Below, in pieces: positions 1 to 6,663 of a stretch of 10,537 nucleotides of DNA. The DNA comes from a virus (lineage: Duplodnaviria > Heunggongvirae > Uroviricota > Caudoviricetes): the IMG/VR virus record IMGVR_UViG_2671180608_000012, one strand, 5' to 3'. How positions within the stretch are numbered: the stretch's first letter is position 1; each line of letters starts with the position of its first letter. Position numbers and translations under genes: made by a program. The notes below the pieces were generated by a model that worked only from the letters and a program-made list of their open reading frames with translations, ran no database searches and was not told the DNA's origin.

Positions 1-12
1 AGTGTAGCGGTA

Positions 13-1290
13 TTAAGCGCAGCTATTTAGTGAATTAAGTAAATTAGTCAGTGACCTTGTAAAGTCTGTTAAACCTTCCTGTGAACCATCGAACATTAAG
101 GCCAGATTATTATTCCATGAATTACTTAAGCGGCCTAACTGCGTCTGAGTAGAGTTAATAATCTTTTCCCATCCACCAGCTTTATCAATCATCCTTCCCA
201 TTTCAGCGGATACTTTAGGAAAAACATCTTTAGAAAGAACCTTACCGTCTTTCATGGCCTTGTCTAATTCTTCCGTAGTCATCCCAAGACTTCTGGCAAA
301 TAACTGAAAAGCACCTGCCATTCTGTCACCTAATTGACCGCGTAGCTCTTCAGCCTGAATCTTTCCTTTAGATGCCATCTGCTCGAAAGCTTTTAAAATC
401 CCGTTAATTTCATCGGTGCTTAGCCCCATTAATCTGGATGTACCAATCACATTAGAAAATAAGGATTCTTTCTGGTCTGCATTCATATCACCAGCACCAG
501 CGGAAAACTTAGCAAAACTGCTTAATGTTTCAATCTGGTCTACACCACTACTATCAGCAAGATTCTTAACAAATTCTGTAGCTCGTTTAGCACCTTCATC
601 ACCTAAAACGAATTGTGCCGCTCGTTGTGATGCTTCTTTTTTCAGACCAACCTCCATAATCCGCCTGTAAGCTTCTAAGGCTGTCTGAAAACTATAAATG
701 GCTGTACCTGCTTTGATTGCACTCGTAGCTAATACATCCAGACTATTTGAAGCATTTTCACTGTGATTATTTTTGCTGGTGGTCTTGTTAAACTTAGAAA
801 GTGTTTCACGAAGAGACTGATTTAACTTTGCTAACTCACGATTAAAAGTTTCGTTTCCAAGTGTCTTGGATTTACTGCTTAAGCTGTAATACTGGCTTTT
901 AAAATACTTCTCAAGCATAGGATTAAAGTCACGAAGCTTGCTCATATTCGCTGAGTAAGCTGCTGTGATTGCTCTGCTTCCGCTAATTCGTGGCTGTCTT
1001 GGTTGTCTAAGTGGCTTTAAAGTATCCTCAATTTCAGTTTTAATCTTAAACGCTCTAGTGTTTTTAAGACGCTGCTCAATCTTGGAAACAGTTTTATCGA
1101 CATTTCTTTCCATTAGTTTGAGAGAATCATTTAAAGGCGTAGGATTAACTCTAAACGACTTATTCAATCGCTTCTCAATTCGTGATGCTACCTGCATCGT
1201 TTGTTTCTCGGCTTTTTCCAAGCCTTTTAAAACTTTCTGAGAGTTAAAACTTAACTCAATCAGAAAATCATCAACTTTAAATTGTGCCAT
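13..1290 (-). CDS. Tape-measure-domain protein (phage tail length tape measure-like), 425 aa, complete
   Basis: ORF with ATG at 1288-1290 preceded by GAGGTG; stop at 13-15. Residues ~290-370 (NGILKAFEQMASKGKIQAEELRGQLGDRMAGAFQLFARSLGMTTEELDKAMKDGKVLSKDVFP) match from memory the conserved tape measure domain of phage tail length proteins. N-terminal 280 aa are K/S/N/L-rich and coiled-coil-like. Confidence 0.6.
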   Translation of the reverse strand: MAQFKVDDFLIELSFNSQKVLKGLEKAEKQTMQVASRIEKRLNKSFRVNPTPLNDSLKLMERNVDKTVSKIEQRLKNTRAFKIKTEIEDTLKPLRQPRQPRISGSRAITAAYSANMSKLRDFNPMLEKYFKSQYYSLSSKSKTLGNETFNRELAKLNQSLRETLSKFNKTTSKNNHSENASNSLDVLATSAIKAGTAIYSFQTALEAYRRIMEVGLKKEASQRAAQFVLGDEGAKRATEFVKNLADSSGVDQIETLSSFAKFSAGAGDMNADQKESLFSNVIGTSRLMGLSTDEINGILKAFEQMASKGKIQAEELRGQLGDRMAGAFQLFARSLGMTTEELDKAMKDGKVLSKDVFPKVSAEMGRMIDKAGGWEKIINSTQTQLGRLSNSWNNNLALMFDGSQEGLTDFTRSLTNLLNSLNSCA

Positions 1291-1380
1291 TCATATTTTT
1301 CACCTCTTTAAGCGTGTTGTACGTAAATTCTATTTTTCAGTGTGGGTATTAGCTTTACAGATTTCACGTAGCACACATAC

Positions 1381-1422
1381 AAAAAAAGGGAGAGCTACCG
1401 ATGTCACTCGATAATCTCTCCC
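1381..1422 (-). terminator. Rho-independent terminator after the 69-aa gene
   Basis: On the minus strand: GGGAGAG (rc of 1416-1422), 21-nt loop, CTCTCCC (rc of 1388-1394), then TTTTTTT (rc of 1381-1387). Lies between the stop of the 69-aa ORF and the start of the tape-measure-like gene. Confidence 0.5.
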
Positions 1423-1446
1423 CGTATTTACCCAACCAATTCTTTT

Positions 1447-1656
1447 TTAATGTCGGACAAGATAATGTAATTCCGTTTCACCTATGATTTGAGCATCAGA
1501 AGGAATACGGTCAATACACCACTTTGGAATCTTGCGTGTTTTTGGTTTGTGTGAGGTGATAACTTGACGTTTGTTTTTAATTCTTAAGGCTGGCTTAGTT
1601 TGTAACTTTAAGTTTTCACAAACAGACCGAATAGTCTCTAAACGTTCTTCAAACAT
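1447..1656 (-). CDS. Hypothetical small basic protein (69 aa)
   Basis: ATG at 1654-1656 preceded by AAAGAGGTG; K/R-rich; 23 nt downstream of the 236-aa gene; no recognisable family. Confidence 0.45.
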   Translation of the reverse strand: MFEERLETIRSVCENLKLQTKPALRIKNKRQVITSHKPKTRKIPKWCIDRIPSDAQIIGETELHYLVRH

Positions 1657-1678
1657 TAATCACCTCTTTAATTCATAA

Positions 1679-2389
1679 TCAAACAGCCTTGCTATACTTC
1701 TGAGAAATCTTCGTTAACTGCTCAATATCAGCCATCAAAGCAATCTTCTTCTGCGACTCATATTCACTAACAAGTTCTTTCATAGTATCAAGTTCTTTTT
1801 TAAGCTTTTGCTTTAACTTATCCAGTTTACCGGAATAATGCTTAGTCAAATTAGCTTCAGCTAACTGAAGAATCTCTTCATCTGTTTTATCAGTCATCAG
1901 AATAAATTGACCAGAACCCCTTAATGCTTGTCTGACATCAATTAACCGGAACCCTTCAGGGATACTTTGAAGAACTTTAGGAACGTCTTCAATCGCTGTA
2001 CCAAAACCATCATTAAAGTTTCCTTCATAATAGATAAACGGGTTTGACTTAATCTCGTAAGCAATATCATATTCTGAAGGTTTCGAGGTTTCTTCGAAGT
2101 TCTTAACAGCATCGTAAGCGACATCAAGTCTAAGACGCTGTGATTTTAAAGCTGGGTAATATTCACGCTCAAGCTCAAATAGTGCTTCAGTTTTGCAGAT
2201 ATCAGGCATTTCTTGAGGCTCAGGAGACACAAAGGAAATTACCTTTGGTGACATCTTTAGCTCTTGCTCAAGCTCAATGCGCTTGTCATGCTCTTGACGC
2301 TGAATAGTATGTAGCGGATGTTCACCCTGTGGTGACCAGTCTCCGAAGCTATCAACCTTTTTACCGTTAATATATAAATCGTTTGTCAT
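1679..2389 (-). CDS. Hypothetical protein (236 aa), cassette copy A large protein; paralogue of 4386..4997
   Basis: ATG at 2387-2389 with GAGGA RBS. Shares colinear motifs with the 203-aa ORF (PEPxEmP; NDGFGTAIEDVPKVLQSIPEG vs RDGWGYDPVEIGKVIADLPEG; following R-rich segment; coiled-coil tail). No known family recognised. Confidence 0.65.
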   Translation of the reverse strand: MTNDLYINGKKVDSFGDWSPQGEHPLHTIQRQEHDKRIELEQELKMSPKVISFVSPEPQEMPDICKTEALFELEREYYPALKSQRLRLDVAYDAVKNFEETSKPSEYDIAYEIKSNPFIYYEGNFNDGFGTAIEDVPKVLQSIPEGFRLIDVRQALRGSGQFILMTDKTDEEILQLAEANLTKHYSGKLDKLKQKLKKELDTMKELVSEYESQKKIALMADIEQLTKISQKYSKAV

Positions 2390-2477
2390 TATAATTTCCT
2401 CTAAGTGTGGTTATTTCTTAATAGAGCACCTTCAACGCCAATACACTTAGAAGATGACTTAACGATTTATTAAAGAT

Positions 2478-2518
2478 GCTCTATTAAGAAAAGCCCTAAA
2501 CATAATCTGTGAAGGGCT
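2478..2518 (-). terminator. Second (distal) intrinsic terminator of cassette copy A
   Basis: Hairpin GCCCT (2493-2497) / AGGGC (2513-2517) with inner 3-bp stem; on the minus strand followed by TTTTCTTAAT. Near-identical to the single terminator hairpin of copy B. Confidence 0.45.
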
Positions 2519-2580
2519 TTGGAGGTTTGCTTATAACGTTAACGAAGTTTCAGGAAAACTTTCTTTAAAAGCTCTGTTTA

Positions 2581-2617
2581 AAAACTCTTAAAGAAAGCCC
2601 TAACTCATGATTAGGGC
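2581..2617 (-). terminator. First (proximal) intrinsic terminator of cassette copy A
   Basis: Perfect 7-bp stem GCCCTAA (2597-2603) / TTAGGGC (2611-2617) with 7-nt loop; on the minus strand followed by TTTCTTTAAGAGTTTTT. Confidence 0.5.
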
Positions 2618-2780
2618 AAAGCTGTAAAGGATTCAATAATGAATGAACAAAGACTTTTTGAGATAGCCTCTCAGACCAACCTGAAAGGCTAGGACGAAAA
2701 GCATTGCACCTTTCCAACTCAGAATATCCATTCATCGGATTATTGAAAGAAAAAATAAGAGAGAATTGCTCTCCCCCATA
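2585..2780 (-). ncRNA. Candidate small RNA or terminated 5' leader (copy A), ~195 nt from predicted start to first terminator
   Basis: Lies between a conserved sigma70-like promoter and an intrinsic terminator; ~90% identical to copy B; no conserved reading frame (indels not multiples of 3, stop codon relative to copy B). Transcript ends are predicted, not observed. Confidence 0.3.
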
Positions 2781-2786
2781 TATACA

Positions 2787-2815
2787 ATTATGTCATGCTC
2801 AAGGTTGTTTGTCAA
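2787..2815 (-). promoter_or_regulatory. Sigma70-like promoter TTGACA-17-CATAAT (minus strand), copy A
   Basis: -35 TTGACA = rc of 2810-2815; -10 CATAAT = rc of 2787-2792; 17-nt spacer. Both hexamers are identical in copy B while the spacer differs at 4 positions. Confidence 0.55.
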
Positions 2816-2904
2816 CAGCCTTTAACAGATTGGTAACATTTATACTTTAATAGATGCACCTGCAATCATACCAATCAATACAAAACAGATAATCACCAAT
2901 TCCA

Positions 2905-3120
2905 TTAATGCACCACCTTCGAATCCGTCACCAGAATATTATCGCTATACAAAATTGCTATAGCCGCCTTGAGATATTTTTCAGGGCTAACGCTGTATTT
3001 GTTCGTTTCTTCGATAATAAGACGCTTCATGTTTGAGTCGGTAACAGGAAACATAAAACGCGGTTCACCAGTTTCAATTTCCTGAATAAAGTCTTCAATT
3101 TCTTCTGAGTTTTCAGCCAT
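2905..3120 (-). CDS. Small acidic protein, cassette copy A (71 aa as seen; apparently 5'-truncated relative to copy B)
   Basis: Protein MAENSEEIEDFIQ...ILYSDNILVTDSKVVH is 49/71 identical to the C-terminal 71 aa of the 108-aa copy B protein. Its ATG (3118-3120) lies 2 nt from an N-run and 14 nt from the IS end, so the true 5' end is uncertain. Confidence 0.5.
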   Translation of the reverse strand: MAENSEEIEDFIQEIETGEPRFMFPVTDSNMKRLIIEETNKYSVSPEKYLKAAIAILYSDNILVTDSKVVH

Positions 3121-3122
3121 TA

Positions 3123-3134
3123 NNNNNNNNNNNN
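3123..3134. other. Run of 12 N (assembly gap or masked bases) at the IS boundary
   Basis: Directly visible in the sequence. Confidence 1.
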
Positions 3135-3177
3135 TGAGGTGTACTGGCAATAGCGGACACTACCATTTGTTCTTTTT

Positions 3178-3996
3178 TTAAGCAGCCATCTGATGATATT
3201 TTTCCCTGAAGGCTGCCGGGGAGATATTCCCCAGACGAGAGTGACGACGCTGACGATTGTAGAAAATCTCAATGTATTCCCGTATTACTGAGATGGCTTC
3301 ATCCCGGTTATTAAAACGATAGTGGCTCAGGCTCTCATTTTTCAGCGTTCCCCAGAAGCTTTCCATCGGAGCGTTGTCGTAACAGTTACCTTTACGCGAC
3401 ATTGATGTTTTCAGACCAGACTGCTCCTGTATGACCCGGTAATCGTATGCGCAGTACTGTGAACCTCGATCAGAGTGGTGGATTAGCCCGGCAGGTGGGC
3501 GCTGGCTCCTGAGCGCCATAAACAGGGCTTTACCTGTCAGCTCTTTTGTCATGCGCTCTCCCATGGCGTAGCCGACAATTTCGCACGTATAAACATCTTT
3601 GATGCCAGCGAGGTACAACCATCCCTCCTGTGTGGCAACATACGTCAGGTCCGCCACCCAGACCTGATTTGGTGCTGTAGGAGCGAACGTCTGGTTCAGC
3701 AGATTTGGCGCAACTGGCAGATTGTGGTTCGAGTTCGTAGTCGCTCTGAACTTGCGTTTCTGCTTACAGCGTAGCCTTAGCTCCTTACGAAGACGTGCCA
3801 GTCGGTCACGACCAACGATGATGCCATTCTCTGCCAGCTCCGTCTGGAGCCGCCGGGTTCCATATGTTTCGCGAGTGCGGATATGTGCCACCTTAATCTC
3901 CAGTTTTAGCCGCTCATCACTTTGTTTTCTGTCTGAGGGTTCATGCTGTACCCAGTTGTAATAACCGCTCCTGGATACACCAAATACCTGACACAT
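3178..3996 (-). CDS. IS3-family transposase OrfB (DDE catalytic domain)
   Basis: Motifs typical of IS3-family OrfB: NQVWVADLTYV, HHSDRGSQY, CYDNAPMESFW, YNRQRRHSRLG. Coordinates are from the first Met; the orfB frame actually extends upstream to the frameshift site near 4077-4083 and is probably expressed as an OrfAB fusion. Confidence 0.85.
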   Translation of the reverse strand: MCQVFGVSRSGYYNWVQHEPSDRKQSDERLKLEIKVAHIRTRETYGTRRLQTELAENGIIVGRDRLARLRKELRLRCKQKRKFRATTNSNHNLPVAPNLLNQTFAPTAPNQVWVADLTYVATQEGWLYLAGIKDVYTCEIVGYAMGERMTKELTGKALFMALRSQRPPAGLIHHSDRGSQYCAYDYRVIQEQSGLKTSMSRKGNCYDNAPMESFWGTLKNESLSHYRFNNRDEAISVIREYIEIFYNRQRRHSRLGNISPAAFREKYHQMAA

Positions 3997-4031
3997 CGCT
4001 TCAATGGGAAATTGTTGTCGCCATTGTTCGA

Positions 4032-4334
4032 TTAACGCGTATTTTTCAGCGACTCCTGTGCAAAATACGCTGTTGCTTTTTTTAATATATCTCGCTCAAG
4101 GCGAGCTTCATTTAACGCCTTACGCAGTTGCAGAATTTCAGATTCCAGTTCAGCCACCGTGCGGGAACCAGGAGTACCGAGCCCTTTTCTGGCGGCGGTA
4201 ACCCATTGTCCTAAAGTGCCTTCAGGAAGAGATAATCGGGAAGCGCCTTCACTGATCGAAAGTTGATTTTCAGGAACCGTTCTGACAGCTTCGGCTTTGA
4301 ACTCTTTAGAGTAACGTTGGGTTTTTCTGCTCAT
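4032..4334 (-). CDS. IS3-family transposase OrfA (HTH plus leucine-zipper region)
   Basis: ATG at 4332-4334 preceded by GAAGGAG; 100 aa ending ...ILKKATAYFAQESLKNTR, resembling IS3-family OrfA; slippery heptamer lies at the LKK codons. Confidence 0.85.
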   Translation of the reverse strand: MSRKTQRYSKEFKAEAVRTVPENQLSISEGASRLSLPEGTLGQWVTAARKGLGTPGSRTVAELESEILQLRKALNEARLERDILKKATAYFAQESLKNTR

Positions 4335-4385
4335 TATTAGCTCCTTCTGATGCCATTCTATTTCAGGAAGGAGTGTCCGTTAAAC

Positions 4386-4997
4386 TCAGGCTACCTCACT
4401 AATCAGCTTAGCCAGTCTTGATTTCAGCAAATTAATCTCATTTTCTCTTGCTTTCATCAGTTTCTCTTTGGCAATTTCTTCAAGCTCAGCTTGTGATTTA
4501 TCAGCAACAATTAGAGACAGTCGATGTGGTGCTCTGACAGCTCTTTCTGTACGAACAACTCTTTGACCTTCTGGTAAATCTGCAATCACTTTACCAATCT
4601 CTACAGGGTCATACCCCCAACCGTCACGGTCTAGTCGAGAGAAATAAGCATAAGAATTGGTTTGAAGCTCCATCGAAATAACCATTTCGTCAATTTCGTC
4701 TTCAAGCTTGGACTGAATTTTCTCGTAAACACTTCTCATTGCTTCTTGAGAGTCTTTAATAGCTTGGAAATATCGGCGTTGTAGCTTCAACTTCAAATCA
4801 AGTTCACACCGTTCGTTCATAGAAAAATCAATTTCAACTCTTGGAATCTCGAGTGGTTCTGGTGGAATATATGGACCTTTATTTACTTCGTGTGATTCCC
4901 GCCAAGCTCTATCAAAAGATTCACGCAAAGTTAATTCGTGAATATCAAGTGCACTTGGTCTGTGTTCGATAAGCATTTCATGTTCATTTCTAATCAT
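4386..4997 (-). CDS. Hypothetical protein (203 aa), cassette copy B large protein; paralogue of 1679..2389; 3' end runs into the IS
   Basis: ATG at 4995-4997 with AAGGGG RBS. The last three codons (EVA) and the stop are encoded inside the IS terminal repeat (IS ends at 4398). About 35 aa shorter at the C-terminus than the 236-aa paralogue. Confidence 0.6.
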   Translation of the reverse strand: MIRNEHEMLIEHRPSALDIHELTLRESFDRAWRESHEVNKGPYIPPEPLEIPRVEIDFSMNERCELDLKLKLQRRYFQAIKDSQEAMRSVYEKIQSKLEDEIDEMVISMELQTNSYAYFSRLDRDGWGYDPVEIGKVIADLPEGQRVVRTERAVRAPHRLSLIVADKSQAELEEIAKEKLMKARENEINLLKSRLAKLISEVA

Positions 4998-5100
4998 TCG
5001 TTCACCCCTTAGTTTATTTGTTATTTCAATTTATAGAAGCACACTCAGCAATCAGAGGTGAAGAGTCTGACTGAACAAGAACCTGCCAAGTGTGCTTTTA

Positions 5101-5136
5101 AAAACTGAAAAAGCCCTAAACATTTCTGTGAAGGGC
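5101..5136 (-). terminator. Intrinsic terminator of cassette copy B
   Basis: Hairpin GCCCT (5113-5117) / AGGGC (5132-5136) with inner 3-bp stem; on the minus strand followed by TTTTTCAGTTTT (rc of 5101-5112). Confidence 0.5.
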
Positions 5137-5290
5137 AAAGGATTCAATAATGAATGAACAAGAGTACTTTTTGAGATAGCCTCTCAGACTAACCTGAAAG
5201 GCCATGACGAAAAGCATTGCACCTTTCCAACTCAGAATATCCATCCATCGGATTATTGAAAGAAAAATAAGAGAGAATTGCTCTCCCATA
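5104..5290 (-). ncRNA. Candidate small RNA or terminated 5' leader (copy B), ~185 nt
   Basis: Conserved promoter upstream and intrinsic terminator downstream; ~90% identical to copy A; 5'-proximal hairpin GAGAG-caatt-CTCTC. The 69-aa ORF reported here (5116..5325) is not conserved as a frame in copy A. Confidence 0.3.
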
Positions 5291-5296
5291 ATTAAA

Positions 5297-5325
5297 ATTA
5301 TGCCATGCTTAAGGTTATTTGTCAA
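5297..5325 (-). promoter_or_regulatory. Sigma70-like promoter TTGACA-17-CATAAT (minus strand), copy B
   Basis: -35 = rc of 5320-5325; -10 = rc of 5297-5302; 17-nt spacer; hexamers identical to copy A. Confidence 0.55.
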
Positions 5326-5426
5326 CAGCTTTTTAACAGGTTGATAACATCAATTCTTATTTACCGCATTGTTAATAATACAACCAACAAATAAGCCAAG
5401 CAACGTCCAAGCAATTATTAAACCCA

Positions 5427-5753
5427 TTAGTGAACCCTCACAGAATCCGTCACCAGAATATTATCACTGTACAGGATTGTCACAGCACCTTTCAAAAATT
5501 GCTCTGGGGAAATACTGTATATGTTCGTTTGCTCGATAACCAATCTTTTCATGTTGCTGTCTGTAATTGGTAGCATCATTCGAGGCTCGTTAAACTCCAC
5601 CGACTGAATAAAGTCAGAGATGTTTTCTACATTATCAGCCATCAGCTTTAGTAATTTATCAAAATTAATTGCGATACCTGCATCAATGAAGCTTTGCACC
5701 ATCATAGCAGTGTCGTTATCAACCATAATTTGCATTGGGTAATTATTCATTTT
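5427..5753 (-). CDS. Small acidic protein, cassette copy B (108 aa)
   Basis: Start placed at the internal ATG (5751-5753) preceded by AGGAG, not at the longer ORF-track start. Net acidic (about 14 D/E against 7 K/R). C-terminal 71 aa paralogous to copy A. No known family recognised. Confidence 0.6.
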   Translation of the reverse strand, partial: KMNNYPMQIMVDNDTAMMVQSFIDAGIAINFDKLLKLMADNVENISDFIQSVEFNEPRMMLPITDSNMKRLVIEQTNIYSISPEQFLKGAVTILYSDNILVTDSVRVH

Positions 5754-5917
5754 TAAATCTCCTATGAAACACACCTCAGACCTCTTAAAATAGCCATTCT
5801 GAGGCCAGTAACCATGCGGGTTACAGAGGGAGTTGCACTGGCTGGTAAGGTAATTTATCAAATTAAGGTGCAACTCTGCCTGTAAAGTGCATTCTACCGT
5901 TTCTTAGATGGTTATTT

Positions 5918-6337
5918 TTAATTGTCTTTATTAATCAATGGCTTAATGTAGAAATACTGTCTCCGTGAAATACCATATTTTTCTGTAATGTATCGCTGAG
6001 ATTGACCAGCATTTATGGCCTGAGTGATATCATCACGGTTATAGCGGTTACCACGGGATTTATATTTGTCACCATCCACATCTTCTGAGGTATTGAAGTC
6101 TTCAATCAGCTTAATTGCATCGTGAAGGTCATCTTCTGAGGCATAATCGAAGGTATGGATAATCTCAAAATCACCAGTATCTGCTGGTGCATTCTTCCAT
6201 CTGGAGAAGCGGGATTTTAATTGCTGGTGTGTGAAGGGTTCAGCATTACGAGTTAAATCTTTCCATGTTCCGTTATTCTCACGGACAAGGTGACCTCTAT
6301 GGCGATAAAACGCATGATAATCAAATGTGCATAGCAT
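5918..6337 (-). CDS. Hypothetical protein (139 aa) with C-terminal HTH-like segment
   Basis: Start overlaps the stop of the upstream RHH-like gene at 6337 (coupled). C-terminal DITQAINAGQSQRYITEKYGISRRQYFYI resembles a helix-turn-helix. Confidence 0.5.
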   Translation of the reverse strand: MLCTFDYHAFYRHRGHLVRENNGTWKDLTRNAEPFTHQQLKSRFSRWKNAPADTGDFEIIHTFDYASEDDLHDAIKLIEDFNTSEDVDGDKYKSRGNRYNRDDITQAINAGQSQRYITEKYGISRRQYFYIKPLINKDN

Positions 6338-6627
6338 TAAACCCCCAGCTTATCCGCCAGTTGATGAACCTTGGCACTCAACACCTGAATCATTGAGCAA
6401 CCTGCCACTGCGGACTGTGCTTTGAGTAGTTCCAGTTGGCCCGTTGTGATTCTGATGGCCTTAGAACCCTCTGCAACGCCCTTGATAGCGTCAAACGGTG
6501 TAAGGGCTATGTGTTCCTTCAAAATCTCACCAACAAGTGCTGTGTGGCTCATGGCTGGGTATTTGTCTTTGATTGCTGCCAGTCTGGAATATGCCTCTGG
6601 CAAAAGGCGTGTAACTGTGTGTCTCAT
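6337..6627 (-). CDS. Ribbon-helix-helix (Arc/MetJ/CopG-like) DNA-binding protein, 96 aa
   Basis: ATG at 6625-6627 with AAGGA RBS. N-terminus RHTVTRLLPEAYSRLAAIKDKYPAMSHTALVGEILKEH fits a beta-strand/helix/helix RHH pattern. Sits directly downstream of the divergent promoter region. Confidence 0.5.
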   Translation of the reverse strand: MRHTVTRLLPEAYSRLAAIKDKYPAMSHTALVGEILKEHIALTPFDAIKGVAEGSKAIRITTGQLELLKAQSAVAGCSMIQVLSAKVHQLADKLGV

Positions 6628-6663
6628 TAAATTTTCCTTCTTAAAATCTTTGACTTATAACTA

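Follow-up and report, generated by a model that had tools for sequence, protein, structure and literature searches.

PLEs (elements like phage-inducible chromosomal islands) of Vibrio cholerae are islands with a large serine recombinase that parasitize the virulent myovirus ICP1 (PMC12987554). They encode a chaperone, a tape measure and a baseplate hub protein of their own, which are 20%, 20% and 41% identical to the ICP1 proteins, respectively; they make chimeric tails that are 10 nm shorter, and they can also block the helper tape measure (PMC12987554). It was not until 2026 that satellite tape measures and chimeric tails were demonstrated, in the PLEs of Vibrio, with a suggestion of wider generality. 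PMC12987554 notes that other putative satellites have predicted tmp genes, but leaves the island family described here unmentioned. We analyzed a 10,537-nt stretch of virus-assigned DNA (IMG/VR record IMGVR_UViG_2671180608_000012; "the window" below means this whole stretch) that begins with an apparently short, 425-aa tape-measure-like protein. Its open reading frame (ORF) is almost certainly the 5′ 61% of a 688-codon tape-measure gene cut by the insertion sequence (IS) IS630. The best explanation overall, which we favor by a modest degree, is that this broken gene lies in a dead copy of an element that is, for Felix O1-like phages, a PLE-like satellite or an anti-phage island.

The PLE of Vibrio cholerae is the closest known system. 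Both it and the element found here are small chromosomal islands with a large serine recombinase whose related phage is a virulent myovirus, and both carry a tape-measure gene and a gene for a baseplate-hub-region protein homologous to those of that myovirus, together with no capsid or terminase genes. In both, the tape measure is more diverged than the hub-region protein (20% versus 41% in PLE; ~29% versus 65–82% here), is shorter than that of the helper (by 95 aa in PLE; by 55–59 aa here), and exists as diverse alleles within the family. The island described here differs in its host (Escherichia/Shigella) and helper lineage (Ounavirinae), in having no recognized tail chaperone, in its second tail gene, which encodes a tube initiator (Dit_like) rather than BhuB, in its HTH_36/DnaD-like replication protein, and in the presence of an extra small resolvase and a Dam-like methylase. 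The likeness is one of functional class.

Other satellites are more distant. Phage-inducible chromosomal islands that form capsids (cf-PICIs) are enterobacterial satellites that can likewise carry a tape-measure gene (PMC12987554, Extended Data Fig. 10), but they encode capsid, portal and terminase, steal only tails and use tyrosine recombinases, whereas the island lacks head genes and uses serine recombinases. [quoted passage not shown] Scans against Pfam, PHROG and NCBIfam yielded no tyrosine integrase, alpA/primase, capsid module or psu-delta-sid markers, the recombinases detected being of the serine type only. We also considered the tail assembly inhibition (Tai) systems (PMC11364771) and set them aside, as no tape-measure homologues are involved in them.

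The broken tape-measure gene and its element

The minus-strand ORF reported in the initial annotation of the window is real (Table 1), and its tape-measure domain was confirmed by searches with profile hidden Markov models. Pfam TMP_3 (PF20155) matched aa 229–396 (E = 1.5e-21, 77.4 bits, cut-off 41), placing the domain in the C-terminal ~45% of the ORF and not, as originally described, in its C-terminal third. PHROG tape-measure families matched as well, the best being phrog_4036 at 1e-71, with the match confined to positions 250–470 of a 749-position profile. Intact homologues in complete E. coli genomes are annotated as a 688-aa tape measure, and TIGR02675 matched an intact homologue with 60.7 bits (cut-off 21.35).

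The window protein shares 95% identity with residues 1–421 of these 688-aa homologues, and homology ends exactly at residue 421. Residues 422–425 (NSCA) and the TAA stop are encoded by the IS630 inverted repeat, as read in locus L005, and a full IS630 (343-aa DDE_3 transposase) adjoins the ORF in complete genomes. When 5,426 complete genomes were searched with megablast, homology to 475 E. coli chromosomes always started at window base 28. A native short protein with its own stop, as first proposed, is contradicted by this cut at codon 421 of 688 and by the rest of the gene, which lies beyond IS630 and IS600 in complete genomes. Intact relatives possess a full-length, uninterrupted ruler, whereas the window ORF ends at residue 421 of 688.

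The gene order in chromosomes of the CP000038.1 type (CP000038.1 is presumably Shigella sonnei Ss046) is p107′, p236, p69, tape measure (aa 1–421), IS630, tape measure (421–558), IS600, tape measure (537–688), tube initiator (1–131), IS3-family element, tube initiator (88–256), large serine recombinase and tonB. The identical 425-aa product was present in complete chromosomes such as CP000038.1 and, by exact-sequence look-up, in 951 data blocks, a wide occurrence that fits clonal S. sonnei-type genomes.

The window was found to combine two chromosomal loci. Positions 1–3122 match the tonB locus in CP000038.1-type chromosomes with 100% identity, and positions 3135–10537 are 99.6–99.9% identical to a second copy of the element at the yecE/yecN locus of other complete genomes. 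There are three N runs (3123–3134, 9382–9408 and 9832–9874). Gene adjacency across the first results from a scaffold join or else from a rearrangement mediated by an IS, and gene order there should not be trusted because tonB/yciI sequence meets yecE/yecN sequence at that point. The "duplicated cassette" of the initial annotation is present in two copies, and it is explained as two diverged copies of one element family from two loci. The yecE-locus copy is interrupted by IS600 within its p234 gene, leaving a 203-aa ORF with 93.5% identity to aa 1–200 of the 234-aa protein; this is a second "short protein" in the window made by an IS. The element copy in the window is a decayed, IS-riddled and non-functional Shigella/E. 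coli copy. The locus had rightly been called mosaic and degraded, and a satellite was among the options offered for it.

Very probably, the broken gene belongs to a discrete integrative mobile element of ~11.5 kb. An intact copy lies between tonB and yciI in E. coli EC20017429. Compared with the empty K-12 site, the tonB insertion is precise, measures ~11.54 kb and is bordered by a direct repeat of 13 bp (CAAGGGTCATTGA), which overlaps with the start codon of tonB. A second integration site is yecE, with the ECONIH4 copy located inside this gene. In IMG/VR and metagenome sequences, more than 80 loci kept one core order: p107, an ORF-free region of ~500 bp, p234/p236, p69/p72, the terminator, tape measure, Dit_like protein and large serine recombinase. 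The far end of the element holds a replication-like region, the Dam-like methylase and the small resolvase. Intact copies are ~11.5 kb each and share the same 13 or so genes and precise attachment (att) sites.

The large serine recombinases (Pfam Resolvase, Recombinase and Zn_ribbon_recom domains) are of three types that share only 28–35% identity (A, 22 loci; B, 28 loci; C, nine loci). The presence of three such divergent types on one core indicates that integration specificity is exchanged as a module. Three element-sized metagenome contigs were circular permutations in which the recombinase runs directly into the other element end. One of them (L045; 11,233 nt) had a 55-nt terminal overlap typical of circular assembly. 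The junction of another (L080) consisted of the ECONIH4 attL arm and the yecE-locus attR arm around a core of ~AAAATCA with zero host DNA between them, which makes it a true attP; in the third (L048), the recombinase was truncated. Given these attP-containing, circularly permuted contigs, the element excises and circularizes in nature.

The element was detected in 475–555 of the 5,426 complete E. coli genomes (~9%). It also occurs in E. albertii, the only species found by exact peptide patterns in genome contigs, and there are records of p236 homologues from Shigella and Salmonella. In the ECONIH4 yecE copy (L001 24600–33370), the right-hand genes usually present are replaced by ~8 kb of additional cargo, which comprises genes for an ISNCY transposase, for an FRG-domain protein and for a number of hypothetical proteins, and this region may be a defense cargo hotspot.

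Link to Felix O1-like phages

Ounavirinae, including Felixounavirus, are strictly virulent myoviruses, and we are fairly confident that the element is linked specifically to them. Its only two proteins with phage homologues are the tape measure and the tube initiator. The intact island tape measure aligned with that of Felixounavirus over 100% of its length at ~29% identity, with conservation in the first 40 residues, in the core and in the SSxYPEE tip at the C-terminus; in the core block, 30 of 40 aa are identical to the phage protein. Island alleles (679–725 aa) are 43–97% identical to one another and always ~26–31% identical to the phage protein, and they are always shorter than the latter (743–747 aa).

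Inspection of the downstream genes in intact copies revealed that the tape-measure gene is followed by a gene for a protein of 254–262 aa that matches Pfam Dit_like and phrog_3721. This protein is 65–82% identical to the product of the gene directly after the phage tape measure, and its homologues were found in Ounavirinae only (299 records). By synteny, that phage gene corresponds to gp18 of the felixounavirus Bas63, which is a hexameric tube initiator located in the baseplate hub complex with C-terminal residues of the tape measure (PMC12609058). The island pair resembles Bas63 gp17/gp18 in full-length collinearity, in the order of tape measure and then tube initiator, in the C-terminal tape-measure tip (the hub contact in Bas63) and in a Dit_like/tube-like domain with an extension of ~100 aa. 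It differs in being located on a bacterial integrative element, in the ~29% identity and 55–59 aa shorter length of its tape measure, and in having a terminator in place of chaperone genes before the tape measure. The initial suggestion that the domain was recruited to another role is at odds with the intact homologues, which match a virion tape measure collinearly from one end to the other and whose next gene encodes the cognate tube initiator.

Both tail genes are under purifying selection within the island family, with ratios of nonsynonymous to synonymous substitution rates (dN/dS) of 0.13–0.21 for the tape measure and 0.16–0.19 for the tube initiator; between the window tape-measure fragment and intact alleles, dN/dS was 0.13–0.19. 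The tube-initiator alleles of two islands (L010 8955–9728 and L016 4778–5215) are 80–82% identical to the phage protein, compared to 65% for others. Sequence identities of this kind suggest that the tube initiator may have been exchanged repeatedly between islands and phages, in line with a recombination signal reported in PMC11069274. The same in-silico study described a 544-bp stretch common to phage vB_EcoM_DE7 and prophage-less E. coli chromosomes, the element itself going unrecognized (PMC11069274).

A 56-nt noncoding element provides a further connection. It is shared with Ounavirinae at 84–86% identity and was single-copy and intergenic in all 253 matching phage records, among them Felix O1 (NC_005282.1, 21578–21633), whose record has no regulatory annotation at this site. 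A single-copy noncoding sequence in common with a putative helper recalls the P4/P2 cos site (cos mimicry), and the 56-nt element is a candidate operator, origin or packaging signal. When its position was compared to the ends of the phage records as a check for a packaging terminus, the positions were scattered.

The strong intrinsic terminator reported upstream of the ORF was recovered as a hairpin followed by U7 (~1423→1381), with a ΔG of −21.9 to −23.3 kcal/mol and a z-score of −2.9 to −4.7. It was kept with compensatory changes in 10 of 10 relatives aligned, its apical sequences differing and its pairing maintained; the folding energy of five variants was −22 to −24 kcal/mol. The accompanying claim that the gene starts its own transcription unit appears doubtful. 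No sigma-70-like promoter was found between the terminator and the tape-measure start codon, and the distance from the T-run to the ribosome-binding site is just ~20 nt in three relatives. Because of this lack of a promoter and this spacing, the sequence makes it more likely that the tail genes are silent by default and expressed via conditional read-through or antitermination than that they have a promoter of their own.

Proposed mechanism and competing explanations

By analogy with the PLE, intact members of the family may be satellites that build chimeric tails, a proposal that we consider evenly balanced. Infection by a Felix O1-like phage would induce the element, the large serine recombinase would excise it, and it would replicate from its own HTH_36/DnaD-like initiator region. 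Transcription would then pass the conserved terminator into the tape-measure and tube-initiator genes, whose products would replace their helper counterparts on the hub, tube and sheath of the helper. The resulting chimeric tails would be ~8–9 nm shorter, as predicted from 55–59 fewer residues at ~1.5 Å per residue. Such a substitution might serve transfer of the element, spoil phage tail assembly, or both. The sequences show the truncation, a discrete mobile element, its excision, the phage-specific homology and purifying selection; in this scheme we infer induction, terminator read-through, the presence of island proteins in tails, and packaging of the element. For induction and packaging by a helper, the shared noncoding element and the circular forms are no more than indirect evidence.

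Several observations weigh against a PLE-like satellite or anti-phage island. No packaging, capsid-remodeling or tail-chaperone gene was recognized in the element, p236 gave generic helical matches only, and PADLOC-DB 2.0 returned no defense-system match for 10 element proteins. The circular contigs could be explained by spontaneous excision. Finally, the window copy is dead, so nothing in the window is able to function.

The rival that survives best, although we regard it as unlikely, is an island devoted to defense only, in which the tape measure and tube initiator act as dominant-negative decoys of Felix O1-like tail assembly. Such an element would never be packaged, would confer protection at the population level and would spread by other routes only; most of the data are compatible with it. 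The lack of packaging or capsid genes agrees with this, and a diverged tape measure (~29%) combined with a close tube initiator (65–82%) would suit a protein that docks on the hub and misdirects assembly; interference with tail assembly is, moreover, a known defense strategy (PMC11364771, PMC12987554). A decoy sits less well with full-length collinearity, conserved ends, strong purifying selection and a near-normal length of 679–725 aa, all as in a working ruler, or with the presence of excision, circularization and replication functions, and the lack of PADLOC matches counts against it too. Defense and a satellite lifestyle are not exclusive, as PLE does both.

A degraded conventional prophage that has lost its head genes and most tail genes, one of the options in the initial annotation, is very improbable. 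Such an origin would be in keeping with a recombinase at one end, two tail genes and heavy IS decay in the Shigella copy. Against it, intact copies are uniform and compact, with precise att sites and two tail genes only. The lack of head and terminase genes noted originally was confirmed: terminase, portal, capsid, sheath and tube families were unmatched in the window ORFs scanned and in intact elements (Pfam, PHROG and NCBIfam). A complete conventional prophage with structural genes elsewhere had also been envisaged, yet no additional structural genes were found in any relative at the more than 80 loci. The phage homologues are confined to strictly virulent Ounavirinae, the element is under purifying selection, and megablast of the left 3 kb against 50,697 phage records gave no match.

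Hardly credible is a natively short protein that carries the tape-measure domain in a new role outside the tail, or that belongs to a phage-plasmid as had been suggested: the ORF does have a ribosome-binding site along with start and stop codons, and it is unchanged in the 951 data blocks, but the stop lies inside IS630, the other 267 codons lie downstream in complete genomes, and the left 3 kb had zero megablast matches in 72,556 plasmids, which together with the search of phage records led us to reject both a phage-plasmid and a known phage.

A literature search for a satellite of Felix O1 or Felixounavirus found no description. Somewhat tentatively, the PLE-like island may represent a satellite family, undescribed and widespread (~9% of the complete E. 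coli genomes), that has virulent Felix O1-like phages as helpers and swaps in its own tape measure and tube initiator, and the first PLE-like tail remodeling outside Vibrio. If so, helper phages are readily available in a model host, and standard phage collections would allow the generality of chimeric tails to be tested in E. coli. Because Felix O1-like phages are in wide use against both Salmonella and E. coli, such a family would bear on phage therapy and typing. It would also account for the "tape measure protein" and "phage baseplate protein" labels left unplaced by prophage finders. For the window itself the cause is ordinary: an IS-truncated pseudogene in a composite, IS-bounded sequence that appears as a short protein.

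Other genes and noncoding features

Table 1. Features located in the window (strand "." where none applies).
Position	Strand	Feature	Basis
1..27	+	IS630 right end, last 27 nt; supplies codons 422–425 and stop	100% match to IS630 3′ ends in E. coli genomes
13..1290	-	Tape-measure ORF, 425 aa, pseudogene fragment; authentic codons 1–421 at 28..1290	
28..29	.	TA target dinucleotide of IS630 insertion	Homology to intact genes starts at 28
209..390	-	Tape-measure core, aa ~300–361, best conserved with phage gene	78% nt identity to Felixounavirus ESCO49 tape-measure gene
1270..1330	-	Tape-measure start and relic of phage chaperone/tape-measure gene junction	78% nt identity over 63 nt to ESCO49 11622–11683
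1381..1423	-	Intrinsic terminator between p69 and tape-measure gene	Folding and conservation
1447..1656	-	p69/p72, small basic protein, always upstream of tape-measure gene	Synteny in all family members
1679..2389	-	p236, an allelic type of core gene p234/p236; mainly a helical protein with coiled-coil C-terminus	
2390..2904	-	ORF-free region, candidate for small RNA(s); one promoter-like site, two hairpins resembling terminators	
2905..3122	-	p107 fragment; CP000038.1 identity stops at IS1 boundary	
3123..3134 (12 N)	.	N run joining two different chromosomal loci	
3135..4398	-	IS600	Sequence comparison with complete genomes
4386..4997	-	p234-type allele cut by IS600, 203 aa, stop codon inside IS600	
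5427..8127	-	Accessory and replication-like genes of yecE-locus copy: p107, p141, p96a, p61 (+ strand), p96b, acidic protein, HTH_36/DnaD-like protein	
8491..9153	-	Dam-like N6-adenine methyltransferase with C-terminal helix-turn-helix	
9214..9271	-	Palindrome-containing noncoding element common to Ounavirinae, just upstream of Dam-like gene	
9805..10479	-	Small serine recombinase (resolvase/invertase), right end of element	

Scans against Pfam, PHROG, NCBIfam and PADLOC returned nothing for p69, p236, p107, p141 and p96. Neither p69 nor p236 showed similarity to phage tail chaperones, and no chaperone homologue was found upstream of the tape measure. The p234 and p236 proteins are two allelic types with only ~25% identity. 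The p236 family is named "transposase" by NCBI in hundreds of records; no Pfam, NCBIfam or PHROG transposase model matches it, and the name is probably a propagated mis-annotation.

The ORF-free region of ~500 bp between p107 and p234/p236 was present in all relatives. On the minus strand of the window, it contains a promoter close to the consensus (2815→2787; 11 of 12 matches, with TG) and terminator-like hairpins at 2779→2755 and 2617→2597, making it a candidate small RNA gene that recalls SviR, the regulatory small RNA of PLE. An Rfam search of the window identified no family.

The replication-like region of the window (7238–8127) consists of two ORFs, encoding a 129-aa HTH_36/DnaD-like protein and a 124-aa acidic protein. 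Its counterpart in EC20017429 (L004 14981–15949) is a single 322-aa ORF with only the C-terminal part in common, as if the DNA-binding domain at the N-terminus had undergone allelic replacement. An 80-nt direct repeat (9297–9592) occurs twice in the window, at a distance of 216 nt, in the interval that separates the resolvase gene from the Dam-like gene, and both copies contain the palindrome AACTTTTCAGAnTCTGAAAATTT. This interval includes the N run at 9382–9408, and the window is ~175 nt longer here than complete genomes; the repeats are candidate iterons or an origin, or else a candidate repeat mis-assembly.

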